Shown here in pieces: positions 23,938-41,188 of a stretch of 64,000 nucleotides of DNA. The stretch covers positions 6,451 through 70,450 of the forward strand of contig DYEO01000002.1 in the NCBI GenBank assembly GCA_020725665.1, read 5' to 3'. The stretch is from Dethiobacter sp. (GTDB lineage Bacteria > Bacillota > Dethiobacteria > DTU022 > UBA8154). The position numbers were made by a program, and so were the translations under genes. The notes beneath the pieces were generated by a model, which saw nothing but the letters and a program-made list of their open reading frames with translations, did no database searches and had not been told where the DNA came from. The stretch's first letter is position 1. Every line of letters starts with the position of its first letter.

Positions 23938-23953
23938 ACTGCTCCCCCCTTCG

Positions 23954-24601: not shown

Positions 24602-24896
24602 AATCTATTTCATCGATAATCGCCACAATGGCAGCATCCACGGGAAGCGCCTTCTCCTGCGGCAATGTTGTGCCCACAGGTTCGCCGCTGCTTAAAACAA
24701 GCTGGGCGGGACTTCCCGTGGTTACACAAACAAGGCTGCCCAGCCCCGAACCGAAAATATCCACCGCCACGAAGGGTTCACCCCGTACCTTCTTTTTCTC
24801 CGGGGAGTACTCCTGCACGATGGCCAGCTTGTAGCCGGAAAGTCTCCTGTCCTTGATCGTGGAGACCACTGCACCGGTTACTTTGGCTATGATCAT
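24588..24896 (-). CDS. BMC-P vertex protein (EutN/PduN/CcmL family)
   Basis: MIIAKVTGAVVSTIKDRRLSGYKLAIV...VAVDIFGSG, the EutN/CcmL fold signature. Confidence 0.8.
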   Translation of the reverse strand: MIIAKVTGAVVSTIKDRRLSGYKLAIVQEYSPEKKKVRGEPFVAVDIFGSGLGSLVCVTTGSPAQLVLSSGEPVGTTLPQEKALPVDAAIVAIIDEIDFARC

Positions 24897-24910
24897 TTAT
24901 AAACCCCCCA

Positions 24911-26263
24911 TCATTTTCGCAAAAGCCCGGCCAGGCAATCCATGACATGTTTGAGATTTTCCTTTGTGGTATAAAAGTGGGGTGCAATACGAATGGCATT
25001 GCCCCGGGCCGAGGCGATGATGTTATGTTTTTTCAGGTCAATCTCCACCTGGTGCGAGTCATCCACCCTGATCGCCGTGGTGGAACCTTTCTTTTTAACA
25101 TCCAGGGGACTGAGCAGCTCCAGGCCCCGCTCCTGCGCCAGCCCGATCGTATACTCAGAAAGCATGTTGATCCGTTTTTCAATGTTTTTTGGCCCGACCT
25201 CGTTGATTATTTCCATGCCGGCACGGGCGGCAAAGGCGGTAAGGACCGGCGGCGTCCCCGTGTCAAAGCGGCGGCTGTCGGAAGCATAATCGAGGTAACG
25301 CACCTGGAAGGAGAAGGGATTCTCCTGGCCGAACCAGCCGGTTACGGCCGGTTTGAGACAGGAAATAAGATCTTTTTTTACATAGATAAAGGCAATTCCC
25401 GGAATCCCCAGAAGATATTTCAGATTACCGGAGGATAGTATATCAATATCCATCTGCTTGACGTCGAGATCAACCGTACCGAGCGACTGGTAAGCGTCAA
25501 CGTAAAAGAGAGAGCCCTTTTCGTGAATGATCCGGGCAATGGCTCCCAGGTCCTGTTTAAAACCGTTCTGATAATAGACATGCGTCACGGAAGTGAGCAC
25601 AGTCTCCTCGTCCAAAAGACGGCGGTAGTCCTCCAGCAAAATCTCACCGTTGCGCACGGGGACGTAATCCACCTTGTAACCATATTTCTGACTGGCCAGC
25701 CAGACGTGGCCCACCGTGGGGAATTCCGCCTCTGTGGTCAGGATACGCCGTCTGGCCCCCAGCGGATCCAGGGCACTGGCAATGGATGCAGTAGCCTCCG
25801 ACACGGAGGTGGAGAGGGCGATCTCGTCGGGGCTGGCGTTAATCAACCGGGCAAATTCATGCTTGGCCTTAATTGTTTCCTCGATCCAGTACTCCCAGTC
25901 CATACCGGCTGTCAGCCAGCTATCAAGGTAATCTTCAATAGCCCGGCGCACTCTTTTGGCCTGGGGGGCCTGAGAGCAGTTGGCCACGTGAATGGTATGG
26001 GCCAGCAGGGGGAACTCTCCCTGCCAGCGGCGGGCAAAATCCTCGGAAAGCACATCCGCCCCTGTATTTGCGGGAGAACTTTGCTGTGTCGCAGCCGGAG
26101 TCCGATCCTGCGGCGATACTGCTGCCCTGACCAGGCTGATACCCAGGCGCCGCGCATTTTCTTCCGCTATCGCCGTTACAATGTCGTTTTCCCCGTATTC
26201 CATAACCGTTTTGCCTGCTTCTTTGCATAGCTCTATATCCCAAGCGGTAATGATCTTCTTCAT
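24911..26263 (-). CDS. Class-V PLP-dependent enzyme (aminotransferase/C-S-lyase family) with an N-terminal BMC-targeting-like module
   Basis: PLP-lysine region SSGNLKYLLGIPGIAF. N-terminal MKKIITAWDIELCKEAGK...VTAIAEENARRLGISL followed by an S/P/A/T/Q linker. RBS AAAGGGGGGAG. Confidence 0.7.
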   Translation of the reverse strand: MKKIITAWDIELCKEAGKTVMEYGENDIVTAIAEENARRLGISLVRAAVSPQDRTPAATQQSSPANTGADVLSEDFARRWQGEFPLLAHTIHVANCSQAPQAKRVRRAIEDYLDSWLTAGMDWEYWIEETIKAKHEFARLINASPDEIALSTSVSEATASIASALDPLGARRRILTTEAEFPTVGHVWLASQKYGYKVDYVPVRNGEILLEDYRRLLDEETVLTSVTHVYYQNGFKQDLGAIARIIHEKGSLFYVDAYQSLGTVDLDVKQMDIDILSSGNLKYLLGIPGIAFIYVKKDLISCLKPAVTGWFGQENPFSFQVRYLDYASDSRRFDTGTPPVLTAFAARAGMEIINEVGPKNIEKRINMLSEYTIGLAQERGLELLSPLDVKKKGSTTAIRVDDSHQVEIDLKKHNIIASARGNAIRIAPHFYTTKENLKHVMDCLAGLLRK

Positions 26264-26347
26264 TTAAGCGATCTCCCCCCTTTCATGCCGCAAAACACCC
26301 GTCACTCATGCCATTTGGCAGCAAACATCGCAGCAACGCGGTGCGGT

Positions 26348-26635
26348 TTATTCTCCCTTACTATTAAGGTTTTTAAGAATAAATGCCTCTATTTCGGCAT
26401 GGGGCCGGGGAATAACATGCACGGACAATACTTCTCCCACACGCTTGGCAGCAGAGGCTCCTGCATCGACAGCAGCCTTCACCGCCCCCACATCTCCTTC
26501 CACGATGACTGTGATATATCCTGCACCAATGTTCTCCTTCGCCAGCAACTGCACATTGGCCGCCTTAACCATGGCATCAGCCGCTTCGATAGCCGCAACC
26601 AGGCCCTTCGTTTCGATCAAACCAAGAGACTTCAT
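26348..26635 (-). CDS. BMC-H hexameric shell protein (PduA/EutM family)
   Basis: [28 protein letters not shown], the canonical BMC domain. Confidence 0.9.
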
Positions 26636-26699
26636 TGTTTAAAACCCTCCTCATGCAGAGCTATTTAATTAAATTGTATTGAACATATCGAAAAGTTTC

Positions 26700-26715
26700 T
26701 GTTAAAAAGACTACA
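26700..26715. promoter_or_regulatory. Crp/Fnr-type palindromic site TGT-N10-ACA (site A) at about -41.5 of the BMC operon promoter
   Basis: TTCTGTTAAAAAGACTACAAAA. rc TACAAT -10 hexamer (approx. 26673-26678) lies 21 nt from the site edge; coordinates +/-2 nt. Confidence 0.45.
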
Positions 26716-26799
26716 AAAGAGGAAATTCAGCAGCAAATCCCGAATAATTATTTTAAAGCGTTAATTTAATCAGATTTGGGGAGAGGAGGTTACCTGAAG

Positions 26800-27513
26800 A
26801 TGAACGCCGGCAGCAAACATGGGGGCAATTTTAGCGGATCTGCTTACCATTATTCACCCTGGTTTCGCCGAGGTGTAGCCTGCTGGGAACCTGTTTTCGA
26901 AAAATGCCCGCAAAAAAGTGTGCGTAAAAACAGCATTATTTTCAGCCAGGAAGAGGTAAACGAATCCGTCTACTTCATCCACAAGGGGCGGGTAAGGTTA
27001 TCATCGTTTGATAAAAACGGGAATGAGAAGTCCATCGTCATCGTCTCCGAGGGAAACATCATCGGTGAGGTGTCCGCCAAGGAAAGGATCCCGGCCATCG
27101 TAACGGCTACTGCCGTTACCGATTGTACACTTTTCTACATGCCCAGCGATCTCTTTTCCCAGAAGGTCTTAGCCAGCCCCGTTTTAAGTGAACGGCTTAT
27201 CCTGGAACTGATGTACCTGGTCCGTATTCTAACAGGTCATATACGGGATATATCCTTCATGGACGCAAGTGAGCGGGTGGTTACCTACCTGTTCAAGCTC
27301 TCCAACAATTACGGCTTGGATACACCCCAAGGACGCAAGATCACTATCCGTTTTACCCACCAGGAAATGGCCGATCTTACGGGCACCTGCCGCGTCACCG
27401 TCTCCAAAATCATGAAATCCCTCGATAAATCAAAAGTCATCAAAAAAATCGACGGCCACCTCTATATCCTCGACGAAGCTTACTTTCAAAAAATTATGGA
27501 AGAGGTCTCCTGA
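26800..27513 (+). CDS. Crp/Fnr-family transcriptional regulator
   Basis: cNMP-binding beta-roll (FIHKGRVRLSS...GEVS) plus a C-terminal HTH (QEMADLTGTCRVTVSKIMKSL). Start moved to MNAGSKHG with a GAGGAGG RBS. Confidence 0.8.
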   Translation: MNAGSKHGGNFSGSAYHYSPWFRRGVACWEPVFEKCPQKSVRKNSIIFSQEEVNESVYFIHKGRVRLSSFDKNGNEKSIVIVSEGNIIGEVSAKERIPAIVTATAVTDCTLFYMPSDLFSQKVLASPVLSERLILELMYLVRILTGHIRDISFMDASERVVTYLFKLSNNYGLDTPQGRKITIRFTHQEMADLTGTCRVTVSKIMKSLDKSKVIKKIDGHLYILDEAYFQKIMEEVS

Positions 27514-27514
27514 C

Positions 27515-28240
27515 TCATTTGCCAAAGCCAACATAGGGCGGGGCATGTACGGCGTGTTCCAGCATCAGGGCGGCACCCGTAATGTCAAAAACAGGGAGTT
27601 GGTACTTTTCCTGTAGAGCATGGCTGTAGGTTGCCAGGTTGCTGCACTCCAGGAGGAGGGCCTGCACCCCCTTGTTTTTCTGCAACAGCTTCCCGGCAGC
27701 GGCCAGTACATCCCGGCACATCAGGTCCACATCGAGAGCCGTACCGCCCTCGATAACGATCTCCCGGAAATGGGGTTCCAGCTCCATGCCCTGGATTTCC
27801 AGGTGGGTTTCCGAGCCGATCCCCGCAGCGCGCAGGTGCTGCTCCTGCAGGAGACCGGCATGCCCGGTAATGATGCCGATGGCTCCTTTTCGTCCCACAA
27901 GGTTCCAGAGCAGGGGCACGAGCACCAGGGCTGAGGTGAGTATGGGCAGGGATCCGCCCGATGCCAGTTCCTGCTGGTAAAGAGCCATGAGACCGCAGTC
28001 GCCGATAACCGCCCATATACCTTTTGCCTTCAGCTTCTTTACCGCGCCCAGCAGTTCATTTTTTATCCCTTCCGACCCTTCGATCAGGTCAGAAAATGAC
28101 CCTTCCACCACTTCGTAGCAAACAGGGAAGGGAAACGTCTTGGCGTGACCCGGATCCCCGGGGACGCGAGGCGACTTACCTTGAAAAACCAGGACGCCCA
28201 CACGCTGGCCGTAAAATGGAAAACCCTTTGCAACTTTCAT
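27515..28240 (-). CDS. Asp/Glu/hydantoin-racemase superfamily protein
   Basis: About 240 aa; Cys-containing half-site motifs (VIGDCGL, LLECSNL) typical of the PF01177 family. Confidence 0.55.
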   Translation of the reverse strand: MKVAKGFPFYGQRVGVLVFQGKSPRVPGDPGHAKTFPFPVCYEVVEGSFSDLIEGSEGIKNELLGAVKKLKAKGIWAVIGDCGLMALYQQELASGGSLPILTSALVLVPLLWNLVGRKGAIGIITGHAGLLQEQHLRAAGIGSETHLEIQGMELEPHFREIVIEGGTALDVDLMCRDVLAAAGKLLQKNKGVQALLLECSNLATYSHALQEKYQLPVFDITGAALMLEHAVHAPPYVGFGK

Positions 28241-28329
28241 CGGGCTGTATCCTTTCCACTTAATTTCCTGTAACTACCCAGATTAAAGATGATCTGTCAC
28301 ACCGCGAAGCAGGGGGTCAAACGGTTCCA

Positions 28330-29544
28330 TCATCTTCCCCTGAGCAATAATAATTTATTTTTATTTAAAAGATCAGCGGTGATCTCCAGTAGCCTGTCAA
28401 TGTCCTCCCTGCTGTTGTAGCAGTGGGGCGAAACCCTGATACCGCCCACACCGGAAGTATAGCGCAGGGAAACAAAGACTCCTTCCTGCGTCAGGCGGGC
28501 ATTTAATTTTCTCTCCTCTTCCAGGCCTCCCGGCAGGGTAAAAGAAGTAATCCCTGAACGATGCCGGGGCTCCCGGGGGCTGACTAGCCTGATTCCCAGT
28601 TCCTCCAGGCCGGTAGCCAGCACATCGCCCAGTTCCCTAACCTTCTTTTCCACGGCTTTTATGCCCGTTTCTTCCAGTTTTTTCAGGCTGTGACAGAGGG
28701 TCAGGGCGCCAAGGTAATTTCCCGTCCCCCCCGTTTCAAACTTCCGGGCCGTCTCTGCCAGCTCCAGTCGGTCAAAGGGCGTGCGCAGGGGTGATTCCAG
28801 ATATTCTCCCCATCCTCCCTCCGGCTCAAGGGCGTTGAAATAGCTGTAGAAATCCGGCTTTAGGAGGGGCAGAAGATTTCTGTTAACATAAAGAAAGCCC
28901 ATGCCAAAGGGATTGCGCAGCCACTTGTGCCCCCCGGCACAGTAAACGTCCACCTCCGTTTCCCCCAAATCCACAGCCAGGGCGCCCGCTTCCTGGATTC
29001 CATCCACAATCAACAGGCAACCGTGCTCCCGGGCCAGCCGGCTGAATTCCTGCAGCTCCACCCGGAAGCCGTTTATCTCCTGCACGGCGCTGATTACGAT
29101 CGCTTTGGTGTTTTCGTCGATGCGGGCGGCAAAATCGGAAACATCCACCCTGCCGTCCTTTGTGGCCACGGCGCGAATCTCGAAGGGAATTTTCTCACGC
29201 CTCGCCTGCCAGCAGAGCGTTGTGGCAAAAAACTCCAGGTCGCAGATGAGGATATTGTCTTCCTTTTCCAGGGGCAGGCTGCCGGCAATGAGGCCGAGTC
29301 CGTGGCTGGTGCTTTCCACCAGGGCAATCTCCTCCGGCGTCACGTTCAACAGACGGGCCGCCTCTGCCCTGGCCCGGGCAAAATAGCTGTAAAGATGTAC
29401 GGTAAAATCCGTGGGAGGGATATGAATATTTTGCAGGGAAGCGATCACTTGTTTCGCTTCTTCCGCAACTTCGGGATCGATTAAACCCATGCAGGCCGTG
29501 TCGAGATAGGTTATTTTGTTGGAGGAAAGATCTATGTTTTTCAC
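28330..29544 (-). CDS. Class-V aminotransferase / cysteine-desulfurase-like PLP enzyme (no targeting module)
   Basis: PLP-lysine motif YCAGGHKWLRNPFGMGFLYV; fold-type I class V. Confidence 0.7.
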   Translation of the reverse strand: MKNIDLSSNKITYLDTACMGLIDPEVAEEAKQVIASLQNIHIPPTDFTVHLYSYFARARAEAARLLNVTPEEIALVESTSHGLGLIAGSLPLEKEDNILICDLEFFATTLCWQARREKIPFEIRAVATKDGRVDVSDFAARIDENTKAIVISAVQEINGFRVELQEFSRLAREHGCLLIVDGIQEAGALAVDLGETEVDVYCAGGHKWLRNPFGMGFLYVNRNLLPLLKPDFYSYFNALEPEGGWGEYLESPLRTPFDRLELAETARKFETGGTGNYLGALTLCHSLKKLEETGIKAVEKKVRELGDVLATGLEELGIRLVSPREPRHRSGITSFTLPGGLEEERKLNARLTQEGVFVSLRYTSGVGGIRVSPHCYNSREDIDRLLEITADLLNKNKLLLLRGR

Positions 29545-29658
29545 TTGACGCCTCCAAAATTGTTGTAACGCTGTTGCCCCCCCGGGTTGCTGAGAGCAAA
29601 CAGCGCTACAACAATCTTAATAACTATTGCCGGTACAGAAGCTACAACAAAAGTTGCG

Positions 29659-30042
29659 CTATAAACTTAACGGCTTTTGCGGCTGCGCGATGGCTTTTTC
29701 TTCAACCTCATAAGCCTGATCATCCATATATTCCCGGCCCCAGCCCGTATAATTATGGCATAAAACATAACCAAGAGCAGCGCCCAGGAACCAGGCCATG
29801 AGCATAATGGCCACCATTTCGGAAGCCATACCCTTAATCATGGCATCGGCGCACTGCCTTACATTCTTAGCCAGGATCAAAGCCACCACTATGCCGGCAA
29901 GCGTCGGCACCCAGAAAGCCATGGGTAACGGCGCCCCGGCAAAGGCCAACCACACAATACCGATAAACAACACTAAAAAGGGCAAAATCAGGCCAAACAT
30001 ACCAACATGAAACTCAAGCCTTTCTTTCGACATTTCACCCAC
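29659..30042 (-). pseudogene. Probable N-terminal fragment of an NhaC-family Na+/H+ antiporter
   Basis: First about 90 aa resemble the NhaC N-terminus (GAPLPMAF...AMIKGMAS...MVAIMLMAWFLG); the ORF is only 127 aa where about 470 is expected. Confidence 0.35.
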
Positions 30043-30127
30043 TCTTCAAAGTGTTGTAAAGGGGAAAGCACAGGAGCACCGTTTCCAATGAGTCATACTG
30101 GTAATCTCAACCGGATTCCGGAAATTC

Positions 30128-31642
30128 TTAATTGTTCAGGCTCTCTTTTATCATTTGCCGTGCTTCGTCAGAGTCCATAAAGCCGTGGAACTTGGCGATA
30201 ACCTCCGGCGGTTGCGGCGGGGTCAGATAGGAGACCACCGTGAAGACAATGATGTTAAAGATTAGCCCTACAAATCCCGGGTGCATGCCCCAGGGGTTCA
30301 TCTTGTTGATAAACAGGAAATAAATGGCGATCAACGTGCCCACTATTAAACCGGATATGGCCCCAGCCTTTGTGGCACGCGGCCAGAAGAGGCAGCCCAC
30401 AATGGAGGGGAAAAACTGGCTCAACCCCGCCGTCGATACGGCAACGAGCATGGAGAGGAGCTGGGGCGGCTCCAGAACCGCCCAGGCGGAAAAAATAAAG
30501 ATGCAGATAACCGCAGCCCGGCTAATGCCCAGTACCGTTCTGTCTTTGGCCTTTTTATTTATTGTTTTTTCATATACGTCCCGGCCTATCAGTTGTGCTG
30601 TGGTTAAAAGCTGGCTGTCGGCAGTAGAAAGGGTAGCGCATAAGCCCCCCGCGGCAATGAGGGCCGCCAGCCAGACAGGCAGATATTCAAACGTAAAACG
30701 GGGCAGGATCTGGTCGGCGAATTCAATACCTGGCATGGCTGCCCGTGCACCCATGCCCAACCAGATATAAGACACGTAAATCCACACCAGGTAGAGGGGC
30801 GCCAGAATGGCCACCCACTTGAGCACGCGCAGGGAACCGGCGGCAAACATGCGGATGATCATGTGTGGTGCCGTAATGGACAAGCCGATGGTAATAATCA
30901 CAACCCAGGAAAAAGCCATGGGTAGCTTGAAATAACCGGGAGCTCCCGGCAGGACAAGCTGTCCCGGCGTTTCCCGGTAAATCATCTGCCAGATCTCTCC
31001 CGGGCTGCCCCAAAGGGCCGTGGAAATAAGCGCCCCGCCGACGACGATGGCCAAAAACATGAAGATCCCCATGAAGATATCCGTCCATACTACTGAGCGT
31101 ATGCCGCCGAAAAAGACGTAGATAACCACAAATACGCCCAACCCTATGGCACCCCAGGCATAGGAGATGGCACCAAACGTGGCAAATTCGGCGATCCAGC
31201 CGGCACCGGCCAACTGCATCTGTATATAGGGAATAATGAAGAGTGCGCCTAGAATGCCGATGAGAGCCCTCAGGAAATCGCTCTGGTAAAAATCACCAAG
31301 CATGTCGCCGGGCGTTACATAATCATACTTTTTACCCAGCAGCCAGATGCGGTAACCGAAGATAAAGAGGCAAAGCCCACCGATAATCTGGGTAAAAGGA
31401 CCGAGAGCCCAGTAGGCCATCCCGTGTTTATAAAAGAAACCACCTGTTCCCAGAAAAGCGGAGGCACTGTGATAGGTAGCCGTATAGGTGAAAAAGAGGG
31501 CTACAAATCCAAGCGTTCTTGAAGCGACAAAGAAGTCTACTGTAGAATCGGAAATACGGCGAAAATAGGCAATCATACCGATGCCGAAAGCCAATACCAT
31601 GACCAAAAGGACGATAAATACGGATAAGGAAACATCCGACAT
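30128..31642 (-). CDS. Sodium:solute symporter (SSS family, PutP/PanF-like)
   Basis: 13 predicted TM helices; SSS signature regions. Confidence 0.8.
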   Translation of the reverse strand: MSDVSLSVFIVLLVMVLAFGIGMIAYFRRISDSTVDFFVASRTLGFVALFFTYTATYHSASAFLGTGGFFYKHGMAYWALGPFTQIIGGLCLFIFGYRIWLLGKKYDYVTPGDMLGDFYQSDFLRALIGILGALFIIPYIQMQLAGAGWIAEFATFGAISYAWGAIGLGVFVVIYVFFGGIRSVVWTDIFMGIFMFLAIVVGGALISTALWGSPGEIWQMIYRETPGQLVLPGAPGYFKLPMAFSWVVIITIGLSITAPHMIIRMFAAGSLRVLKWVAILAPLYLVWIYVSYIWLGMGARAAMPGIEFADQILPRFTFEYLPVWLAALIAAGGLCATLSTADSQLLTTAQLIGRDVYEKTINKKAKDRTVLGISRAAVICIFIFSAWAVLEPPQLLSMLVAVSTAGLSQFFPSIVGCLFWPRATKAGAISGLIVGTLIAIYFLFINKMNPWGMHPGFVGLIFNIIVFTVVSYLTPPQPPEVIAKFHGFMDSDEARQMIKESLNN

Positions 31643-31663
31643 ACCTTTTCACCACCTTTATTA

Positions 31664-31945
31664 TTATTTCCAGAGATATTTGGCCGCGACCATGCCGCAG
31701 GCGAGAATTACATGGGACCACAGCGTCAGCCAGAAATAGATGAAAGGAACGCCAAAAACAAACGGCTCAGCCCTGTTTGCCCAGATCAGCCCCGGGTAAA
31801 CCATGAGAAAAGCCACAATACCAACTATGGTCAGCACCCAACCTAACTGTGTGCGGGGCCACAAATAGGTATGGGCTTTAATCAGGCGGTACGATTCCTC
31901 GTAAGATGCGGCCGTTGCTTTGCTTACTTCAACTTCTGGTTTCAT
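31664..31945 (-). CDS. Small membrane subunit associated with SSS transporters (DUF4212-like)
   Basis: 93 aa, 2 TM helices, placed immediately upstream of the SSS gene. Confidence 0.45.
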   Translation of the reverse strand: MKPEVEVSKATAASYEESYRLIKAHTYLWPRTQLGWVLTIVGIVAFLMVYPGLIWANRAEPFVFGVPFIYFWLTLWSHVILACGMVAAKYLWK

Positions 31946-32246
31946 GCTTATTCACCTCCAACTTATTATGAGTAGTTTAAGAAAGTCATAATCCCTCTAT
32001 CCACGGTGCTTTAAGCGCAGTGGATAGATATTTTTCACCCCCAAACGGGGTGTTTTTGTATTAGGCATTAATTTGCTGATATCCAGTGATATAGCGAGAT
32101 TATCAGCGATATATGGCATTTTTCTCTGCTCAAGGCAGTATATCAAACTTGACATTTACGGATCGCCACCAAAATTGAAATATAGGTATTAATTAACATT
32201 ATTTCCAGGAGGTGTCGGTTATGTTGGACCATGTACGCGGTCATCC

Positions 32247-33524
32247 ATGATGAGTACTTGTGTTTCATGTTGCCCCGGATTAGAAAATTATTTCTGGAAA
32301 AACCCGGGACAGGTCCTGTTTTATCTCGATGCGCCGCTCAAGGCTTATCTGCTGAACCTGGATAGAGGCATCGAGATTTTACAGGGGTGTTACTCTAAAG
32401 ATTTCGGCAGGCCGGCTGTTTTTGACCCGGTGGATATGCTCCGATCTTTAATTCTTATGGTGTCACTTAAAATTACCTGTGTTACCAAATGGGCTGATGA
32501 TCTCACCAAAAGTGATGTGCTGGCTATTTTATGTGGTTTCGAGCCGGGCAAGACTCCTTCCGCCTCCGCTTTTTACGATTTCTGGAACAGGTTGTGGCTG
32601 GAAGACAAAAGGCTGAGAAAAAAACGTAAACTAAGGATTAGGATAAAGAGTAAGCAACCGAAAAATGTGCAGAAAGGGCAGAAATTGCCCAACAGGCGCC
32701 CGGGGGGGATAGACTCGTCAGGTCTTTCCGTAAGGGAAGATTTTTCTCCACCAAACGTCCCGAGCGGCTGCTGCAGGAGCTGTTCACCAGGGTCTTTGTT
32801 CAAGGCTCCAGGGATAGAAATATTATCCCTGTTTCTATGATACTAACCGGTGACGTATTTCTGGGGCAGAAATCTGTATACGTTTTCCTGTGTTAATGGT
32901 GAAGATGAACTGCCGGTATTTCTTCGTTTTGGACAAGGCTCCAGGCATGATAGTGTGGTTTTTGCGTTCAGTGTGGTGGAAGCGTGGTCCCTTTTTTCTA
33001 AGGCCGGGCTTAATGTCAGCGTTTTCATCGGTGATTCGGCGCACGATGCTAACCCCTTATATGCACTGCTGGATGATTACGGCTCCAAGCCGGTTATTGC
33101 GCTGAATAAAAAGCCTTCATCTCTTATCCCTTTAAATGAGCAGGGTATTCCTCTTTGTCCTAAAGGGTTTTTAATGCAGTACTGGGGATTCGGTGAGAAA
33201 AAAAGCCGGTTCAAATGGCGCTGCCCTAAAATCGTCGGTAAAAAAAGGAACAGGAACAAAATTGATTGTACAACGCCCTGCACAAACTCCAGCTACGGCT
33301 TTACTTGTTATACCAACCCGGAGTGGGACCGGCGTATCTTTACGGATATCCCCAGGGGGTCGGCTGTCTGGAAACAGCTATACAGTGCATCTGGATGCCT
33401 GGATTGCACAGGAACTGGAGCTTTCAAAGCTCGACAAAAAGGCACTGCTGCTGCGCGTTCTGTGAGTTGGCACGGCCGCTGCCTGTGCGTAGGCGCAGCG
33501 GCTCTTGATTTTGGACACTTGTAG
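32247..33524 (+). mobile_element. Frameshifted IS5/IS1182-family transposase remnant (DUF772 N-terminal domain plus DDE domain)
   Basis: ORF1 GRPAVFDPVDMLRSLILM matches the DUF772 N-terminus; ORF2 (32850-33524, a different frame) carries the DDE region (GDSAHDANPLYALL...). Confidence 0.6.
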
Positions 33525-33917
33525 TTGCTTTTGATAGTAATGATTGTACCCTGCACGCTTTTTTTGGAAAGGAGGGCTGCTTTAGCCTACCGATTATTGG
33601 TGTTTTCAAAGAGCAAATTGATAACTTATGGCATTAATGGTAATACATGCTAATTCCAACGGCCTCAATCTAATAAACTGCTTAATGACTTTCTGAACAC
33701 ACTCATTATTTGTGGTTTAGAAACACAATAAAACACCCAACTCTACACCTTTACACTGCCCAACTGACTGTCAACTGTAAATCCTTTTTCCCTTTACCTC
33801 ATAAATCACCCCCTTGCCTTAAAAGAATTATGCAAAAAACAAACGCAAGAGAAAATTCATGATATATTATAACCCCATCCATTTAATTTAGTTTACTGAA
33901 TTTTTACTATTAATTCT

Positions 33918-33933
33918 GTAAAAAAGACTACAA
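33918..33933. promoter_or_regulatory. Crp/Fnr-type site TGT-N10-ACA (site B) with a minus-strand -10 (rc TAAACT) 21 nt away; orphaned promoter
   Basis: TTCTGTAAAAAAGACTACAAAA, identical core to site C; coordinates +/-2 nt. Confidence 0.4.
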
Positions 33934-34116
33934 AAATATGGTTTGTCCAGTCCCATTTGTACTAAAATTGCCGTTATTTTTCAGGTGCTCCTCAATATTG
34001 GCTGTGGTAAGCCCTACTACATAGCAAGGAATAAAAAAATCGTTGTAACACTGCTTTGCCAAACAATGCCACAACGATTTAAAAAAAGCAATTTCGACCC
34101 AGTTCAACAATCAAAA

Positions 34117-35556
34117 CTATTTGCTTTGACTACCCGTTAAAGTGCTTGCCGCATCCTTTTCTTTTACTGCTAAACTAATAACAACAAGAAGGATTAAACC
34201 AATAACGGCGCCGGCGGCAGCACCGGCAATACCCCAGGGTTTGTTAAGATCCCAGATTATTGCCGTGATACAGCCAGCGACCGTTCCCGCGATTGCCCCC
34301 TCTTTTTTTGCACCCTTCCAAAACACCCCCGCGTACAAAGGTGCTGCGATAGCCCCTCCAATTACAGCTGCTTGGAATACCCAGAGGTCCAACATCATTT
34401 TTGGTGGCCGTAAAGCGAGCAGCATACCTAATACACCGATAGTTCCAGTTGCGATACGGCTTATTACAAAAAGCTGTTGCTCCGATACGTCCTTTTTAAT
34501 CTTTGCATAGAAATCCTTGCTAAATATTGTACCCGCTGCAATAAGCGCCGAGTCTGCTGTGGATAAAATTGCCGCGCCAACCGCGCTTAACACAAACCCG
34601 CCAAGGACAGGCGGAAGGTAATTGTTCATGAGCAGGGGAAAGGCATGATCAGCAGATTGTAAGTTAGGCTCTAGAACACGGGCAGCCGAGCCGGCCAAAA
34701 CAATAAAAGTGTAAAATACTACCATGAACGCCCCGGACACACCAATCATACCTTTTGCTGTTAAAGTATCTTTACAAATGAAAAGTCTCATCAAATAATA
34801 CGGGAGCGTGGAGGAGGCCACTACGGCAAATATTACCATACTACCAATGGTAAGCCATGTAAGACTACCTCCCTGATTGAAGCTAACCAGGTCACCGGCG
34901 GATACGTTATTAATACCGCCCGTAACCAAAGCCAGCCTGGCATTAAGGTTGGAAACACTGCCAAACTGCGTTACAATAATATAAATCGTGCCAATGCTAA
35001 CTCCTAACCACAAAATGATAAACTGAATGCCATCGGTCCAGACAACTGATGTCATACCACCAAATGTAGTGTATAAAAGTAAAATGGCTCCTATTAATAG
35101 AACAACCGTAGAATATTCCCATCCAACCAGTTGTTGAAGCACCAATCCGATACCGCGCAACTGCAGTATAACAAAAATACAAAGAATCGCCAGGTAAATG
35201 GCCGCGCTCCACATGGATAAAAACGGGCTCTTAAAACGCTGCTCCAGGTATTCGGAAACTGTTACAGGCCCTAATCGCCTTAGCTCACCCGCAATGAAAT
35301 AAAGGACTAACCAGGCAATTGCTATGGGTATTAATAAAAATGCAAAAAACCCATAGCCCCGTAGATAACTGGTCCCCGTAAAACCTACAATAGTAACCGA
35401 GCTGATGTAAGTGGCGCCAAAACTGCCAGCCGCCAGCCATACACCTAATTTCCGTCCGGCAAGATAATAATCTTCAAGATCTTTAGTTTTAACATACCCA
35501 TAAAACCCCACAGCAAGAACAATAAGCAACATAATTCCAAAAATTAAAATTTGCAA
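34117..35556 (-). CDS. Sodium:solute symporter (SSS family)
   Basis: 13 TM helices; TTG start with a GGAGGGAAG RBS. Confidence 0.8.
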   Translation of the reverse strand: MQILIFGIMLLIVLAVGFYGYVKTKDLEDYYLAGRKLGVWLAAGSFGATYISSVTIVGFTGTSYLRGYGFFAFLLIPIAIAWLVLYFIAGELRRLGPVTVSEYLEQRFKSPFLSMWSAAIYLAILCIFVILQLRGIGLVLQQLVGWEYSTVVLLIGAILLLYTTFGGMTSVVWTDGIQFIILWLGVSIGTIYIIVTQFGSVSNLNARLALVTGGINNVSAGDLVSFNQGGSLTWLTIGSMVIFAVVASSTLPYYLMRLFICKDTLTAKGMIGVSGAFMVVFYTFIVLAGSAARVLEPNLQSADHAFPLLMNNYLPPVLGGFVLSAVGAAILSTADSALIAAGTIFSKDFYAKIKKDVSEQQLFVISRIATGTIGVLGMLLALRPPKMMLDLWVFQAAVIGGAIAAPLYAGVFWKGAKKEGAIAGTVAGCITAIIWDLNKPWGIAGAAAGAVIGLILLVVISLAVKEKDAASTLTGSQSK

Positions 35557-35592
35557 TTTTTCTTCCCTCCGGAATTTAATTAAGTTTAATTT

Positions 35593-35700
35593 TTATTGTT
35601 TCCTAAGACCATCAATATAAAAACCAAGCATGCAAATACTTATTCCGTAAAAAACGATAATACCAAACCATGTACCCCAGGGCAAATTAGCCGGTCCCAT
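35593..35700 (-). CDS. Unannotated 35-aa single-TM protein (MGPANLPWGTWFGIIVFYGISICMLGFYIDGLRKQ) upstream of the SSS gene
   Basis: ATG preceded by AAAGGAGGTG at ideal spacing; not in the ORF track because it is shorter than 60 aa. Confidence 0.4.
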   Translation of the reverse strand: MGPANLPWGTWFGIIVFYGISICMLGFYIDGLRKQ

Positions 35701-35737
35701 AATTTTCACCTCCTTTCGCGAACTTTTGCCGATTGGA

Positions 35738-36493
35738 TCATGCATCAACATTTGTATCCAGTGCAAAAAGTTTACCAGGCCCTTTTGCTTTTTTTACTCC
35801 TGACAATTTTAACATATGCCAAAGAAGACACTGATTACTGGATATTACCGGTTTATTTAAATCAGTTTCAATTAAATTAATTGCCTTCATGGCAGGGAAC
35901 CCGGTACAACTGAGAAATATTGCCTGGCTATCCCGGCAATCAGCCCTTAATGCCAGTTCATAAATATCTTTTTCATTTACATAGGCTATTTCTTCGCCTC
36001 CTTTTAAACCCAACCATGCGTCACCACTTACCGTATAGCCTTCCTTTATAAAATAATTGACTCCTTTTTTATGGATAATTTCTTCATAAGGGCTGCAGAA
36101 CGAAATATTTATAACGCCAAGCACTTTCAATGCGTTTAAAACAGCCGTGGTGGCAGTTGTCACTGGAACTCCATTTAGTTTTGCGCTTATCTCGTTGCAC
36201 AAAACCTTATCATAGTTTTCTTTATAAAAACTTCCGGAAGTGCATCCATAACCTATTACAGAAACTTTGGATAATATCAGTTTTTCTGCCTCAATAATTA
36301 CCTGTTCGGACATTTCCTCTAACAGTTCCAGAGACAAAACATCCCCGGGAGTTCTGGCTCGGGAAAAATGAACTGACACTCCGTCAGGCAAATAATTAAT
36401 GAGATCGCACTCAATAATCGGATTTGGTGACGGTACTATTACACCTAACCTTGCTCGCCAACCAGGACCAACCAAGTTTTCAGGCACGCTCAA
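35738..36493 (-). CDS. Asp/Glu/hydantoin-racemase superfamily protein (maleate-isomerase / arylmalonate-decarboxylase-like)
   Basis: Two Cys-containing half-site motifs (GYGCTSGSF, FLSCTGFP) at the spacing typical of the family. Confidence 0.55.
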   Translation of the reverse strand: MSVPENLVGPGWRARLGVIVPSPNPIIECDLINYLPDGVSVHFSRARTPGDVLSLELLEEMSEQVIIEAEKLILSKVSVIGYGCTSGSFYKENYDKVLCNEISAKLNGVPVTTATTAVLNALKVLGVINISFCSPYEEIIHKKGVNYFIKEGYTVSGDAWLGLKGGEEIAYVNEKDIYELALRADCRDSQAIFLSCTGFPAMKAINLIETDLNKPVISSNQCLLWHMLKLSGVKKAKGPGKLFALDTNVDA

Positions 36494-36648
36494 TTCTCTC
36501 CTTCTCTATATACTTAGCTGTTTTCCACCAATTCTTATTTCCTTATTGCAGAAGACTAACATAATACATTTGTTCCATCTGTTGTTCAGGCTACATTTAT
36601 GAGAATAATAAATATATTATTAATAAACCCTCGTCCTTGCAAGAGATA

Positions 36649-37197
36649 TTAATTACCAGCAAAAGCAGAACCATCCGCACCGGTCAACTGCAGCGACTCC
36701 CGCAGTTGCTCCGGCGTAACCTTGGGAAAATGTACGGCCAGGTACCAGGGAAAGGTCTGGTGCAGCCAGAGTTGGTAACGGTTGGTGAGGGTAAACATGG
36801 CGTCCAGGAGACTACAATATTCTTCCCTGGCTTTCACCTCATCCAGAGAGGCAACGAACTTATTCAGCAACTCCCCGTAGCGTTTCAGGCCGAAATAGCC
36901 GATCACACCACGGCCCACGCCGGTCATCTGACGGGTCATCATTTTAAGCATCTCGAGCGTAAACTCCTGCCGTACGGCGAACACACGCAGATCTGCCAGG
37001 GAATGCACTCCCAGGTTGCGTACTTCGCTGCCTAACATCACCCAGACCGTAAAATACTGGTTATCCACCCCCGCCCCAGTATCCAGTAGACCAAGGCGAA
37101 ATCGCTGCAAATCAGGAGGTTCAGTAAGCCAGATCGCCTCCAACTCTGCGTTGATCTCCTGCAAGAGTGAAAGGACCATGGGATTCAGATCAGCCAT
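36649..37197 (-). CDS. Hypothetical protein, translationally coupled to the upstream ORF (ATGA overlap)
   Basis: 182-aa ORF in an operon; no recognisable motif. Confidence 0.45.
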   Translation of the reverse strand: MADLNPMVLSLLQEINAELEAIWLTEPPDLQRFRLGLLDTGAGVDNQYFTVWVMLGSEVRNLGVHSLADLRVFAVRQEFTLEMLKMMTRQMTGVGRGVIGYFGLKRYGELLNKFVASLDEVKAREEYCSLLDAMFTLTNRYQLWLHQTFPWYLAVHFPKVTPEQLRESLQLTGADGSAFAGN

Positions 37198-37643
37198 CAG
37201 CTCTCCCCCCTTTGCACATGCACGCGCAGAAACCTGCCCGGCTCGAAAAGGAGGTTGTGCCAGACTTTTTCCCCGATACGCAGGAGGGTATCCACGTCTT
37301 CCGCAACCACCTGGGCCAGGGGCAAGGCCGGGACCGGCTCGGTAGGTTGTTCATAATTAATCGCCAGGTATTGAAAAACATGTTCCAGGTTGATACGGCC
37401 GATGGGCTGTTTATCCATAGGTTCCCAGTAGAATTTGGCCTCTGCCGCCTGGGGCAGGAGCAGACGTACGGGAAAATACATCTGACGCCCGGCTACCACG
37501 GCATGGCTTTGGATGCTGGACATGGGCAGGCTTTTTAAAAACACTTCTTTTAGTTCAGCCCACTGCTCTTCCAGCAGGTAAGCCTGTAATGACATCTGCA
37601 ATTCCGGCCAGTGCAGGTGAATCTTATTTTTCTTCATTTTCAC
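37197..37643 (-). CDS. Hypothetical protein
   Basis: 148-aa ORF; 20-nt overlap with the upstream gene; no recognisable motif. Confidence 0.45.
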   Translation of the reverse strand: MKMKKNKIHLHWPELQMSLQAYLLEEQWAELKEVFLKSLPMSSIQSHAVVAGRQMYFPVRLLLPQAAEAKFYWEPMDKQPIGRINLEHVFQYLAINYEQPTEPVPALPLAQVVAEDVDTLLRIGEKVWHNLLFEPGRFLRVHVQRGES

Positions 37644-38145
37644 CCCGCCATTTATAAATCATTTCACAATACGGATCCCCTTTGAGGATGTTCTTTGTTA
37701 ATTGAAATTCAATTTGTGGCTGGTAGCCTTCCCAAATGGCATAATCGATATCACAATACAGCAGTCCGATCTCGTTGGCTCCCAACTCTTTCCATGTATT
37801 GCCAAAAGGACAACGAGTAACATGGGTGATATGGCAATTATTTTCCTGCCTGGTTTCTCCCTGCCAGGCCGAAGAACCGATAGGCAGATCGTGATACTTA
37901 TATTCATTTTCCTGGGTCACCGCAAGCCCCGCTTCCTCGACCTTGTGTCTGACCCTGCGCCCCCGCTCCACGCCAAACGCGTGAATAGCGTCCCGCACGG
38001 CCTGGGCACCTTCTTCACCGAAACGTTCCACCACGGTTCCCGCCAGGTGATAAAACAGGCGTGCCGCATATTCTGTGAGCTGGGCCACCATGATTTCGGG
38101 ATCGGGCGGTGGCGGCAACTTCCTGACGCCTTTTTCTTCAGTCAT
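37624..38145 (-). CDS. Possible L-2-amino-thiazoline-4-carboxylate (ATC) hydrolase-family protein
   Basis: About 170 aa with conserved Cys positions (RCPFG, LLYCDID, DPYCEM) recalled as characteristic of the ATC_hydrolase family. Assignment is from memory and needs an HMM check. Confidence 0.35.
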   Translation of the reverse strand: MTEEKGVRKLPPPPDPEIMVAQLTEYAARLFYHLAGTVVERFGEEGAQAVRDAIHAFGVERGRRVRHKVEEAGLAVTQENEYKYHDLPIGSSAWQGETRQENNCHITHVTRCPFGNTWKELGANEIGLLYCDIDYAIWEGYQPQIEFQLTKNILKGDPYCEMIYKWRGENEEK

Positions 38146-38196
38146 TTTTTGTACCTCCTTTTTAAGCTGTCTTTTACATCTTGCCCTGAGAAGTTT

Positions 38197-40104
38197 TTAA
38201 ATGACGGGGACCCCTGCTGCCAGCAGTTGGCGGGCCACATCAGCAAGGCCCAGCCGGGAGAGAGTCTTCCCTGTGGGGATGCCTGTTGCCGGGTCCCAGC
38301 CCCGTGCCGCGTAGTACTCGTCCAGCATGGCCTCGAGTTCCACAACACTGCCCTTGGATGGATGTTCTCCCGGCAGGGGCTCTTTAAGAAAGCGCTCCGG
38401 CAAGGTATCATCACTGCGCCGGATCCCCTGCCGCACGATAAAAGCCCTCTCCAGGTTCAGTACCCGCTCACAGGCTTGCTGCACACCCTCGCCCGTAAAA
38501 GCGCCGCCGGTCAGCGCCGCAAGCAGCGCCGCCGCTTCCCCAAAGTCGATGATCTCCATATTCACGATTGTATTCTTGCAGGCGCTCAGGCAGTCGGAGA
38601 GAGCGCTCCATTCCTCGTAGTGTTTGACCAGCCGGCCTTTGCCCCGGTACTCCAGGCGAAAGGCCGCTTCCCTGGCCCCGTAACGCCTTATGCCCTCATC
38701 GGGATCATTGGAAAATTCGAAGGAGGGTTCGGAACGGAGGTGGTCGCCCCCCCGGCTGGCCAGGGCAAAGCCCAGGGCGTAACCCTTCAGCCCCCGCGGG
38801 TCCGCCTGGAAGACCTCCAGGCCTTTAATGTGCATGGCCAGTTTTTCCGTGCCTCGCCCGATTGTACGGGAGGCATGGCGCACCCCCCTGGCCAGGAGGT
38901 CGCCAATACCCTCGCGCCAGGCAATCTTGCGCAGCAGTTCGCGTATTGCCCTTTGATCCCCCCAGCGCGGCTCCAGTCCGTCCACTTCATCACGGCTGAG
39001 CAACCCTTTTTCGAAACACTCCATGACAAAGGAGATGCACTCGGAGGCAGTGATCACGTCCATTCCCAGCCGGTTGCAGTCGTCAACCCCCTGTAGGGCG
39101 AAGGCCAGGTCGTTGCAGCCCACGCGGGAGGAAAACCCGGCCAGGCCTTCAAACTCCGGGCCTTCCGAGGCGAGGCCGGCGTACGGGCCGGAAGTGATAC
39201 GGAAAAATCGGCTGCAGGGGATCGTGCAGGCAAAACAAGACTTGGACTTAACCTTGAGGGTCTTTGCCAGTTGTTCGCCGCTTACGGCATCAGCACCGGC
39301 GAAATCCCCGGAGAGGAAGTGGCGGGTGGCCAGGCAGCCGAATTTGTTCAGCGCATTGATCAACTTGGTTGTCCCCATCATGGCCCGGGCCTGGTATTCG
39401 TCATGCTTGTAGATCTTTGCATCAATTTGCGCGAGCAGCTTTTGGAAGCGCTCCCGGTCATGAATATTGATGCAGCCCTTGCCGCGCACGGCCACGGCCT
39501 TGAGGTTTTTCGCCCCCATCACCGTACCCATGCCCGTGCGTGCCGCGGTACGGACCAGGTTGGCAAAGACACCGGCAAAGGTCACGCCACGTTCCGCGGC
39601 GGGGCCGATGCAGGCCACCTGCAGGCGGTTGTCCGCCAGCTCTTCCCGCAGGGCTTTGTCCGTCTGCCAGACGTCCCGGCCCCAGAGATGTTCGGCCGGA
39701 CGGATCTCCACCCGGCCATCGGTAATGAGCAGGTATACGGGCTTCTCGCTGCGTCCACTGATGATGAGCTGGTCGTAGCCGGCAAACTTGAGCTCCGGCC
39801 CGAAGAAACCACCGGCATTGGCATCGCCGAGAATCCCCGTGTGGGGTGACTTGGCGGAAACATTAAAGCGCGCCCCCCCGGGAAAAAGCGTGCCGGCCAG
39901 GGGCCCGGCGCTGAAAAGGAGAGGATTACGGGGTGAAAGGGGATCCGTATCCCGGTCCAAAAGACGGAAAAGCCTGCATATATTCAAACCCCGACCTCCC
40001 AGGTAGCTTTCCACCTCGGGACCCAGTTCCTCTTGCTCCACACGGCCCTGCGTGAGGTCAACATTTAACACCTTACCGGCATAACCGCCGTGCCATTTTA
40101 CCAT
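38197..40104 (-). CDS. aor: Tungsten-containing aldehyde:ferredoxin oxidoreductase (AOR family)
   Basis: N-terminal AOR domain (KVLNVDLTQG...GGRGLN) and 635-aa length typical of AOR. Confidence 0.85.
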   Translation of the reverse strand: MVKWHGGYAGKVLNVDLTQGRVEQEELGPEVESYLGGRGLNICRLFRLLDRDTDPLSPRNPLLFSAGPLAGTLFPGGARFNVSAKSPHTGILGDANAGGFFGPELKFAGYDQLIISGRSEKPVYLLITDGRVEIRPAEHLWGRDVWQTDKALREELADNRLQVACIGPAAERGVTFAGVFANLVRTAARTGMGTVMGAKNLKAVAVRGKGCINIHDRERFQKLLAQIDAKIYKHDEYQARAMMGTTKLINALNKFGCLATRHFLSGDFAGADAVSGEQLAKTLKVKSKSCFACTIPCSRFFRITSGPYAGLASEGPEFEGLAGFSSRVGCNDLAFALQGVDDCNRLGMDVITASECISFVMECFEKGLLSRDEVDGLEPRWGDQRAIRELLRKIAWREGIGDLLARGVRHASRTIGRGTEKLAMHIKGLEVFQADPRGLKGYALGFALASRGGDHLRSEPSFEFSNDPDEGIRRYGAREAAFRLEYRGKGRLVKHYEEWSALSDCLSACKNTIVNMEIIDFGEAAALLAALTGGAFTGEGVQQACERVLNLERAFIVRQGIRRSDDTLPERFLKEPLPGEHPSKGSVVELEAMLDEYYAARGWDPATGIPTGKTLSRLGLADVARQLLAAGVPVI

Positions 40105-40208
40105 AATACACCTCTATTTGCGACAACAGGGACGGTTCTCTTTCGTCGCAATTTCTGAATATTTATTTATGCTGGTGCCTTACATGCGTTTTTAATCTTC
40201 CGTTATAC

Positions 40209-40712
40209 TTACCGTGTAGTGTTGGAATCTGTCTTTAAATGAAGTTTCTCCTGCGGCAAGGTAATTGCATGAACCGGGGCGGTTACGATCCGGCCCGCCC
40301 CATCGCGATATTTCAGGGCATGCACTACGCAGCGCTGTACACAGGCAGGCTCTCCTTTGCAGAGATCGCAAATTATTGCCCGATCGCGCGCCTCATCGAG
40401 TCGTGCCGCACCAAAGGGGCAGGTTTCCACGCAGGCGCCACAGCCGATACATGCGTCCTTGACCAGCACAGCCCCTGTCTGCAGGTCCCGTTCCAGTGCT
40501 TCTTCAGGGCAGGCCGCCATACAGGCGGCATCATCACACTGCAGGCAGACCATGGGATAATCCAGACCGTCCTCCTCTTTTTTATATACCTGAATGCGGG
40601 CCCTTTCCGGCCAGAAACAACCCTCATGCGCCAGGCTGCACGCCACCTCGCAGGAACGGCAGCCCGTGCAGATATCCCTGTCCACAATCAATCTGCCATA
40701 TTTTTCCGTCAT
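40209..40712 (-). CDS. Polyferredoxin-type electron-transfer protein (4 x [4Fe-4S] motifs)
   Basis: CTGCRSCEVAC, CLQCDDAACMAACP, CIGCGACVETCP, CDLCKGEPACVQRC. Confidence 0.8.
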   Translation of the reverse strand: MTEKYGRLIVDRDICTGCRSCEVACSLAHEGCFWPERARIQVYKKEEDGLDYPMVCLQCDDAACMAACPEEALERDLQTGAVLVKDACIGCGACVETCPFGAARLDEARDRAIICDLCKGEPACVQRCVVHALKYRDGAGRIVTAPVHAITLPQEKLHLKTDSNTTR

Positions 40713-40758
40713 CCTTCAGCCTCCTGGAAGGACCCTTATTTGCCTTGGCACTTTCTCT

Positions 40759-40786
40759 ATAAAACTCACACCATAAAACTCACACC
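40759..40786. repeat. 14-bp perfect tandem repeat (ataaaactcacacc x2) in the leader of the ferredoxin-AOR operon
   Basis: Read directly; lies between the inferred -10 and the ferredoxin start. Confidence 0.6.
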
Positions 40787-40826
40787 GGTCCTTAACTAAA
40801 TTTTATTTGAATTGTTAGTAATATTT

Positions 40827-40842
40827 CTGTAAAAAAGACTAC
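40827..40842. promoter_or_regulatory. Crp/Fnr-type site TGT-N10-ACA (site C) at about -41.5 of the ferredoxin-AOR operon promoter
   Basis: TTTCTGTAAAAAAGACTACAAAAAG; a weak minus-strand -10 (rc TAAATT) 22 nt away; coordinates +/-2 nt. Confidence 0.4.
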
Positions 40843-40942
40843 AAAAAGCTAAATTAATCCTGGTTGTAATAACCGGATCTTGTATTCACTGTATAGGACT
40901 GGCTATTCTGTTAATGGAGCAGGAATGACTATCTGGAATAAT

Positions 40943-40982
40943 TGGGCGGCAAATAACTTGTGTGGGCGGCAAATAACTTGTG
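40943..40982. repeat. 20-bp perfect tandem repeat (tgggcggcaaataacttgtg x2) between the tRNA-Gln 3' end and the island promoter
   Basis: Read directly. Confidence 0.6.
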
Positions 40983-41009
40983 GAAAAATGCGATGTGTGG
41001 GAAATAAAA

Positions 41010-41084
41010 TGGCTGGGGCGGTAGGATTCGAACCTACGGATGCGGGATCCAAAGTCCCGTGCCTTACCGCTTGGCTACACCCCA
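41010..41084 (-). tRNA. tRNA-Gln (anticodon UUG), CCA encoded
   Basis: rc: TGGGGTG...CGGGA-CTTTGGA-TCCCG...GGTTCGAATCC...CGCCCCA-G-CCA; coordinates +/-1. Confidence 0.8.
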
Positions 41085-41110
41085 GCATTGCCTGTAACCT
41101 GTTAAATTGT

Positions 41111-41188
41111 TGGGGTGAGTGATGGGGCTCGAACCCACGGCCTCCAGGGCCACAACCTGGCGCTCTAACCAGCTGAGCTACACCCACC
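41111..41188 (-). tRNA. tRNA-His (anticodon GUG) with encoded G-1 and CCA
   Basis: rc: G-GTGGGTG-TA-GCTCAGCTGGTTAGAGC...CCAGG-TTGTGGC-CCTGG...GGTTCGAGCC...CACTCAC-C-CCA. The extra 5' G pairing with discriminator C is a His hallmark; coordinates +/-1. Confidence 0.8.

Follow-up and report, generated by a model that had tools for sequence, protein, structure and literature searches.

A decayed insertion sequence in the leader of an SSS-symporter operon, downstream of a putative Crp/Fnr-type promoter, in a Dethiobacter sp. contig

In the 64,000-nucleotide stretch of Dethiobacter sp. DNA analysed here (the window: contig DYEO01000002.1 of assembly GCA_020725665.1, positions 6,451 to 70,450 of the forward strand), we found the remnant of an insertion sequence (IS) lying between a candidate Crp/Fnr-type promoter, site B, and the minus-strand operon that begins with genes for a small membrane protein and an SSS-family symporter. 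Read leftward along the minus strand, the -10 hexamer of site B lies at 33895-33890, the IS runs from 33704 to 31970 and the first start codon of the operon is at 31945, an arrangement that agrees with a preliminary description of this DNA in which an IS separates the promoter from the SSS operon. We propose that an IS of about 2 kb encoding a DDE transposase entered the small-gene/SSS-symporter operon within its 5' untranslated leader, antisense to the operon, and that the insertion would have duplicated the pentamer ATTAT. Site B would be an activator-dependent class II promoter of the Crp/Fnr type and the ancestral promoter of the transporter operon, which is probably still transcribed from it, if perhaps less strongly, by polymerase reading through the remnant. 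Taken as a whole, we consider this explanation likely to be correct. The element and its immediate flanks comprise:

31970..33704, plus strand: IS remnant, 1,735 bp, delimited by DNA homology to contig L007 and by alignment of its ends with related copies
31970..31989: left terminal inverted repeat, GAGTAGTTTAAGAAAGTCAT
33685..33704: right terminal inverted repeat, reverse complement GAGTGTGTTCAGAAAGTCAT
31965..31969: ATTAT, left copy of the candidate target-site duplication
33705..33709: ATTAT, right copy of the candidate target-site duplication
32221..33492, plus strand: transposase pseudogene, traced by tblastn with the intact relative P0039 (508 aa, 71% identical)

The limits of the element were fixed against an intact relative of 1,988 bp on contig L007 (2749-4736), whose DNA is 88.6% identical to window positions 31971-32855 and 91.3% identical to 32835-33382. 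The terminal inverted repeats are 20 bp long and imperfect (16 of 20 positions complementary), and those of L007 (2744-2766 and 4719-4741) correspond to the window pair 31965-31989 and 33685-33709. With both ends aligned across six related copies, the termini read 5'-(G/A)AGT...GAAAGTCA and ...GACTTTCTGAA-NNN-ACT(C/T)-3', equivalent ends being present in L007, L010, L011, L012, L013 and L014. The anatomy and position of the element are seen directly in these alignments: the inverted-repeat ends and flanking duplication to which the preliminary description had pointed as a check were mapped, the ends to 31970 and 33704, with ATTAT on both flanks. These two copies of ATTAT are likely, but not proven, to represent a target-site duplication; the L007 copy carries TTTAAC on both of its flanks. 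A transposase remnant antisense to the operon had been placed at 32247-33524, between site B and the operon; its presence and strand stand, but not its extent, the element reaching from 31970 to 33704 and including positions 33525-33704, which had been called non-coding. Logan contig L019, from the same sample, reproduces window positions 32770-34464 at 100% identity and is thus independent confirmation of the right junction, of site B and of the terminator beyond it.

A search of the window for a second copy of the IS found none, and copies in different genomes occupy differing genomic sites, as befits a mobile element. Intact copies (L007, L010 and L011) come from other MAGs of anaerobes and from metagenomes. 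That on L007 (contig span 1-7527) has UbiD, Amdase and xanthine dehydrogenase genes as neighbours, while the L010 copy (1-1224) adjoins a gene with a Cu_amine_oxidN1 domain, the L011 copy (1-1226) an AOR gene and the L012 copy a formate/nitrite transporter gene; the relative on L014 comes from a biogas fermenter. These surroundings suggest that the IS lineage circulates in related Bacillota of similar habitats, near similar catabolic genes.

The transposase gene has decayed well beyond a single frameshift, which is how its decay, correctly recognised as such, had been described. The two plus-strand open reading frames (ORFs) that remain, 32247-32840 and 32850-33524, gave only a weak DUF772 match, and with the frame-repaired protein many intact relatives 505-511 aa long were retrieved, among which P0039 matches best (71% identity). 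Measured against P0039, the coding path starts at 32221, passes through frames 1, 2, 3 and 2 to a first deletion, continues in frame 3 to a second deletion and ends in frame 1 at 33492. The lesions are three frameshifts, one in-frame stop (in the final frame 1 segment) and two deletions: about 139 nt (about 46 codons) are missing after the residues ILTGD, and about 117 nt (about 39 codons) are missing where the SERVNKR motif, the catalytic-glutamate region, should stand. The element in the window is a dead, immobile remnant.

Family placement was sought with profile models. The intact relative P0039 passes the Pfam model PF01609 (DDE_Tnp_1) with 28.3 bits against a cut-off of 23, and the window remnant no longer scores because the deletions interrupt this domain. 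IS1182 (NF033551) is the best NCBIfam model for the intact relative, but its cut-off of 270 bits is reached neither by the repaired window protein (29.4 bits) nor by the intact relatives P0039, P0042 and P0083 (34.7, 45.6 and 68.4 bits), and plasmid-borne relatives are annotated merely as 'hypothetical protein' or 'transposase'. The element resembles IS1182-family and IS4/IS5-type elements in its single DDE ORF of about 508 aa, which has a DUF772-like region at the N-terminus besides a DDE_Tnp_1 domain, in its imperfect terminal inverted repeats of about 20 bp, in its candidate target duplication, short and of variable length, and in its length of about 2 kb. It differs from the IS1182 family in those scores of 29-68 bits against 270, and the window copy in being dead and lacking the catalytic-glutamate region. 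On these scores we would describe the element as a divergent, unnamed lineage related to the IS1182/IS5 group rather than as a member of IS1182.

Mapping the left end of the IS also settled the origin of two hairpins that lie close to the first gene of the operon:

31996..32028, plus strand: IS-borne conserved hairpin, with compensatory changes
32036..32052, plus strand: IS-borne terminator-like hairpin followed by TTTTTG, upstream of the transposase gene and conserved in other copies

Hairpins at 31990-32060 had been placed in some 300 bp between the IS and the first gene and regarded as a possible replacement promoter or attenuator. Both lie in the IS's own left end and are kept in five IS copies from other genomes, with compensatory changes at four base pairs, so that a host origin was rejected. 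On the strand of the transposase they precede a conserved TTGACA and the transposase start; hairpins in such a position are usually read as insulating the transposase from read-in transcription. The hairpins beside the first gene thus belong to the IS and should not be taken as an attenuator, and the 1.7 kb that part site B from the transporter genes are the scar of a mobile element rather than regulatory DNA of the host.

Outward-facing promoters in IS ends are well known, and one in the left end of this element might now drive the operon and have released it from dependence on a Crp-type regulator. Two sigma-70-like matches on the minus strand do face the operon, at 32207-32179 (TGGAAA-17-TATATT) and at 32146-32118 (TTGATA-17-AAAAAT), but promoter-like matches occur at chance level (5 found against 4.9 expected), each match scores only 9/12 and the hexamers are not conserved in other IS copies. 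An outward IS promoter is thus not supported beyond chance, and we hold this reading to be very improbable. Lowest of all we rate the idea that the dead IS has been kept as a functional long leader, in which the end hairpins and 1.7 kb of antisense RNA would act as a Rho-dependent or structure-dependent attenuator. Were that so, the transporter operon would have an induction threshold unlike that of the bacterial microcompartment (BMC) and AOR operons with which it shares a Crp-type regulon, and the IS remnant would be a regulatory spacer rather than a neutral scar.

A central question for our explanation is whether site B is a promoter, and if so, of which genes. The features that bear on this are:

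33917-33932, minus strand: site B, Crp/Fnr-type 16-mer TGTAGTCTTTTTTACA
33890..33895, minus strand: TAAACT, candidate -10 hexamer of site B, 22-27 nt after the site
34037..34080, minus strand: intrinsic-terminator-like hairpin of 20 pairs followed by a T-run, ending the upstream AOR...Amdase-SSS2 operon
26776..27513, plus strand: Crp/Fnr-family regulator with cNMP-binding and HTH_Crp_2 domains

An identical copy of the 16-mer lies at 40828-40843 ahead of the AOR operon (site C), and a copy differing by one base lies at 26700-26715 ahead of the BMC operon (site A). Allowing up to three mismatches, the window holds four matches to the 16-mer against 0.47 expected, a count reached in none of 100 shuffles. 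Sites A, B and C are all intergenic and face minus-strand genes. Hexamers resembling a -10 element follow at matching offsets: TACAAT at site A occupies the same 22-27 nt after the site as TAAACT at site B, and TAAAAT at site C lies one base further (23-28 nt). By sequence geometry, the site centre would fall near -41.5 at all three, the arrangement of class II Crp/Fnr promoters, with transcription from site B predicted to start near 33883 on the minus strand. When site B is read on the plus strand, the spacing misfits and only the 3' end of a convergent gene lies downstream. The minus-strand site with its candidate -10, pointing leftward, was confirmed as first described. The terminator at 34080-34037 ends the upstream operon right before site B, so site B starts a separate transcription unit.

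In class II CRP- and FNR-dependent promoters, the activator site is centred near -41.5. The window sites share with these promoters a 16-bp site with TGTA...TACA half-sites, a -10 starting 22-23 nt after it and the want of a good -35; they also share the encoding of a Crp/Fnr-family regulator nearby and the repetition of the site ahead of several functionally linked operons. They differ in the half-sites themselves, which are TGTAG and TWACA here, as against TGTGA-N6-TCACA for Escherichia coli CRP and TTGAT-N4-ATCAA for FNR. The regulator at 26776-27513 is the likely reader of sites A, B and C, and from these patterns we infer both that site B is read by this adjacent Crp-family regulator and that, ancestrally, the transporter operon was transcribed from site B. 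A fourth, weaker site, TGTAGCCTGAACAACA, is found at 36580-36595 (minus strand) in the gap upstream of the Amdase/small ORF/SSS2 unit; it is followed by TATTAT at 14-19 nt, a spacing unlike that of sites A to C, and could either mark an internal promoter within this regulon or have arisen by chance.

The genes that site B would serve run leftward from the start codon at 31945 to the regulator gene:

31664..31945, minus strand: small membrane protein, 93 aa, weakly DUF3311-like, symporter partner
30128..31642, minus strand: second SSS-family symporter, 504 aa, full length compared with homologues
29659-30042, minus strand: 127-aa membrane ORF, between the SSS gene and the class-V aminotransferase gene
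28330-29544, minus strand: class-V aminotransferase
27515-28240, minus strand: Asp/Glu-racemase-like gene

We compared this arrangement with homologous loci that lack the IS. In Brevibacillus (L003 and L015; L015 5192-9311), one operon carries, in order, h122, a 92-aa gene (62% identical to the window small gene), an SSS gene (58%), h143 (57% identical to window 37197-37643) and Cucumopine_C. A regulator gene 47% identical to the window regulator diverges from this operon, and the intergenic region holds the site TGTAGCACTTTTAACT with TATTAT 22-27 nt after it. In Alteribacter natronophilus (L016 4302-13987), the operon runs Aminotran_5, 92-aa gene, SSS, h145, Cucumopine_C, TPP enzyme, cyclase and aldehyde dehydrogenase, the Aminotran_5 protein being 62% identical to the aminotransferase of the window's BMC operon. 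It too is preceded by a site, TGTAAACTATTTTACA, with TATAAT 21-26 nt after it, and by a divergent regulator gene, here 55% identical to that of the window. The window's 93-aa protein is 58-62% identical to the 92-aa proteins of Alteribacter and Brevibacillus, and the three regulators have an invariant helix-turn-helix segment, FTHQEMADL..T.RVTVS. In these Bacillota relatives the genes form one operon behind a single site of the TGTA-N8-TACA type, and in the window the gene set is divided among three site-bearing operons, together with BMC shell genes and AOR. Because regulator, site type, spacing and small-gene/SSS pair all co-occur at the Brevibacillus and Alteribacter loci, they travel together, and this co-occurrence where no IS is present favours the view that site B is the transporter operon's promoter. 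That operon would then most likely share one Crp-type regulon with the BMC and AOR operons beside it. A set consisting of a Crp-family regulator, a KYNU_C-like class-V aminotransferase, the 92-aa gene, SSS, a hypothetical protein of about 145 aa, Cucumopine_C and sometimes ATC_hydrolase recurs in Brevibacillus, Alteribacter and a Synergistaceae metagenome-assembled genome (MAG; L017 303-7592), and in the window at 22135-40843.

An alternative is that site B never served the operon. It could be an orphan or a recent duplicate of the site C block, serving for example a short leader or a small RNA, with another promoter of the operon having been replaced or destroyed by the IS. The likeness of site B to site C indeed reaches beyond the 16-mer, a 40-nt block around site B being 90% identical to the block at 40808-40847; the leader reconstructed below is unusually long; and a strong Shine-Dalgarno sequence with ATG-AGG-TAA (33814-33794) could be the vestige of a lost gene. 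Yet a terminator lies directly upstream of site B, no other minus-strand gene lies between site B and the small-gene/SSS pair, the leader has no Rfam family or stable structure, and the IS-free loci place the same site type ahead of operons containing the small-gene/SSS genes rather than driving an unrelated gene, as they might have done had the proposed role of site B been mistaken. We regard an orphan site B as quite improbable.

If site B is the ancestral promoter, as we propose, the leader before the insertion can be reconstructed by removing 31970-33704 and one copy of ATTAT, which brings ...CAACTTATTAT directly against TTGTGGTTTAG. Two segments only are native leader DNA:

33710..33889, minus strand: 5' part of the native leader, about 180 nt, no Rfam match and no unusual predicted folding
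31946..31964, minus strand: 3' end of the native leader, with an intact Shine-Dalgarno sequence, GGAGGTG, at 31952-31958

The element lies about 180 nt downstream of the promoter and 24 bp upstream of the start codon at 31945, its insertion point 6 nt upstream of the intact Shine-Dalgarno sequence. From the predicted start near 33883 to the ATG at 31945, the leader would have lengthened from about 200 nt in the reconstruction to about 1.94 kb now, the reconstructed distance from site B itself to the ATG being about 230 nt. We rejected the idea that the leader holds a riboswitch or attenuator: a search of 31600-34200 against Rfam was without a match at E <= 1, and shuffled sequences fold as well as the reconstructed leader (z = -0.65). 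Downstream of site B, the native leader contains a two-codon mini-ORF, ATG-AGG-TAA, after a strong Shine-Dalgarno-like GGGGGTG (33794-33814, minus strand), and just upstream of it a 10-codon ORF, MNFLLRLFFA. They may be what is left of the start of a lost gene, or may encode a leader peptide; a tblastn search of the leader for a lost first gene such as the h122 or Aminotran_5 of the relatives found none.

IS insertions in operon leaders are classic polar mutations, and the most direct challenge to read-through is that transcripts from site B die within 1.7 kb of untranslated antisense IS sequence, by Rho termination or RNA instability, leaving the operon silenced, uncoupled from the regulon and decaying. 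The promoter is now separated from the first gene by about 1.94 kb of untranslated RNA, and the 127-aa ORF after the SSS gene may be a truncated transporter gene, an intact NhaC of 486 aa standing at the syntenic position in the Synergistaceae MAG. On the other hand, prediction yields no intrinsic terminator on the operon strand from 33890 to 31946, and the similarity of the short ORF to that NhaC, which covers only the N-terminus of the intact L017 protein, is not significant (tblastn, E = 3.2) and comes with no Pfam match; the label 'NhaC fragment' given earlier to 29659-30042 could not be substantiated. Above all, the small gene, the SSS gene, the aminotransferase gene and the racemase gene (3.7 kb) are all intact and full length beside a transposase gene of about 1.5 kb with at least six disabling lesions; by our own calculation, about 15 lesions would be expected in the operon at the transposase's rate. 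This disparity argues that the operon stayed under selection, and so was expressed, after the insertion. We therefore consider silencing unlikely and read-through from site B the probable state. Of the earlier view that an ancestral promoter-operon unit was split by the IS, the position is borne out by the mapped termini and the promoter role is supported by the more distant IS-free loci, but a functional separation gains no support, no minus-strand terminator being predicted inside the IS and the downstream genes being intact.

Several points weigh against our explanation. Another gene stands between the site and the small-gene/SSS pair in the IS-free relatives, so that the order of the genes is not strictly kept. 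Compared with the leaders at sites A and C and in the relatives, the reconstructed one is two to three times as long. The candidate target duplication has a mere 5 bp, and the L010 and L012/L013 copies show none, these being metagenome contigs that are possibly chimeric across a repeat. We found no close relative or empty site, so the ancestral junction is reconstructed and not observed: a genome-contig scan with the SSS protein returned only Brevibacillus (58%) and one match at 35%, a search of 5.8 billion proteins returned nothing between 100% and 61% identity, exact-protein look-ups (small gene, two SSS genes, two transposase ORFs) led only to the source MAG and to short contigs of the same sample, and two metagenome scans, one for the consensus of the three sites and one for the reconstructed empty-site junction, gave zero matches. 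The argument from relative decay would lose force if the transposase lesions are older than the insertion, as they could be had a defective copy been mobilised in trans. Rho-dependent polarity may act on an untranslated leader of 1.9 kb, and the link between promoter and regulator is itself a prediction.

Known cases of IS insertion in or upstream of leaders include IS1 and IS2 in the gal leader of E. coli and IS1 and IS5 upstream of bgl and flhDC. Like these, the window element lies between a regulated promoter and the first structural gene and alters both the distance and the transcript. Unlike them, it is old, decayed and antisense, has no detectable terminator on the operon strand and is followed by genes that look maintained. 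An IS in an operon leader is textbook biology that will not surprise a specialist, and we regard this one as an ordinary scar, whose finding matters mainly for the annotation and interpretation of the locus. The BMC-linked catabolic cluster and the regulator/site pair are more interesting by-products: a conserved pairing of regulator with TGTAG-N6-TWACA at class II spacing, ahead of a set of uncharacterised catabolic genes, is of greater use than the IS itself.

The minus strand of the window is largely a long catabolic cluster, which besides the transporter operon comprises:

40712 to 36649, minus strand: ferredoxin-AOR-ATC_hydrolase-hypothetical-Cucumopine_C unit
36493-34117, minus strand: Amdase, small ORF and first SSS symporter (first SSS gene, 34117-35556)
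22135-26635, minus strand: BMC operon, starting at 26635 and divergent from the Crp-family regulator

The small membrane protein had been called a DUF4212 subunit, an assignment that fails: it gives no DUF4212 match even at E <= 5, and in Pfam only a weak match to DUF3311 (27.6 bits against a cut-off of 30), with DUF7139 and DUF7322 weaker still. Directly upstream of the first SSS gene, and overlapping the 3' end of the Amdase ORF, is a 57-aa ORF (35593-35766, minus strand) with no family match; by analogy with the 93-aa gene, it may encode a small-subunit partner of the first SSS symporter.

The BMC operon, which site A would drive, includes genes for BMC-H, a class-V aminotransferase, EutN/BMC-P, a CsoS1D-like BMC-T and a 628-aa amidohydrolase; an aldehyde dehydrogenase core is not in view. 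The operon is similar to the type known as 'BUF' (BMC of unknown function; PMC4207490), and a literature search for the exact combination of BMC, AOR and aminotransferase gave no match. Just upstream of site C and the AOR operon lie genes for tRNA-Gln(ttg) and tRNA-His(gtg) (41010-41187, minus strand), and the direct repeat 'gggcggcaaataacttgtg' occurs twice at about 40945-40985.

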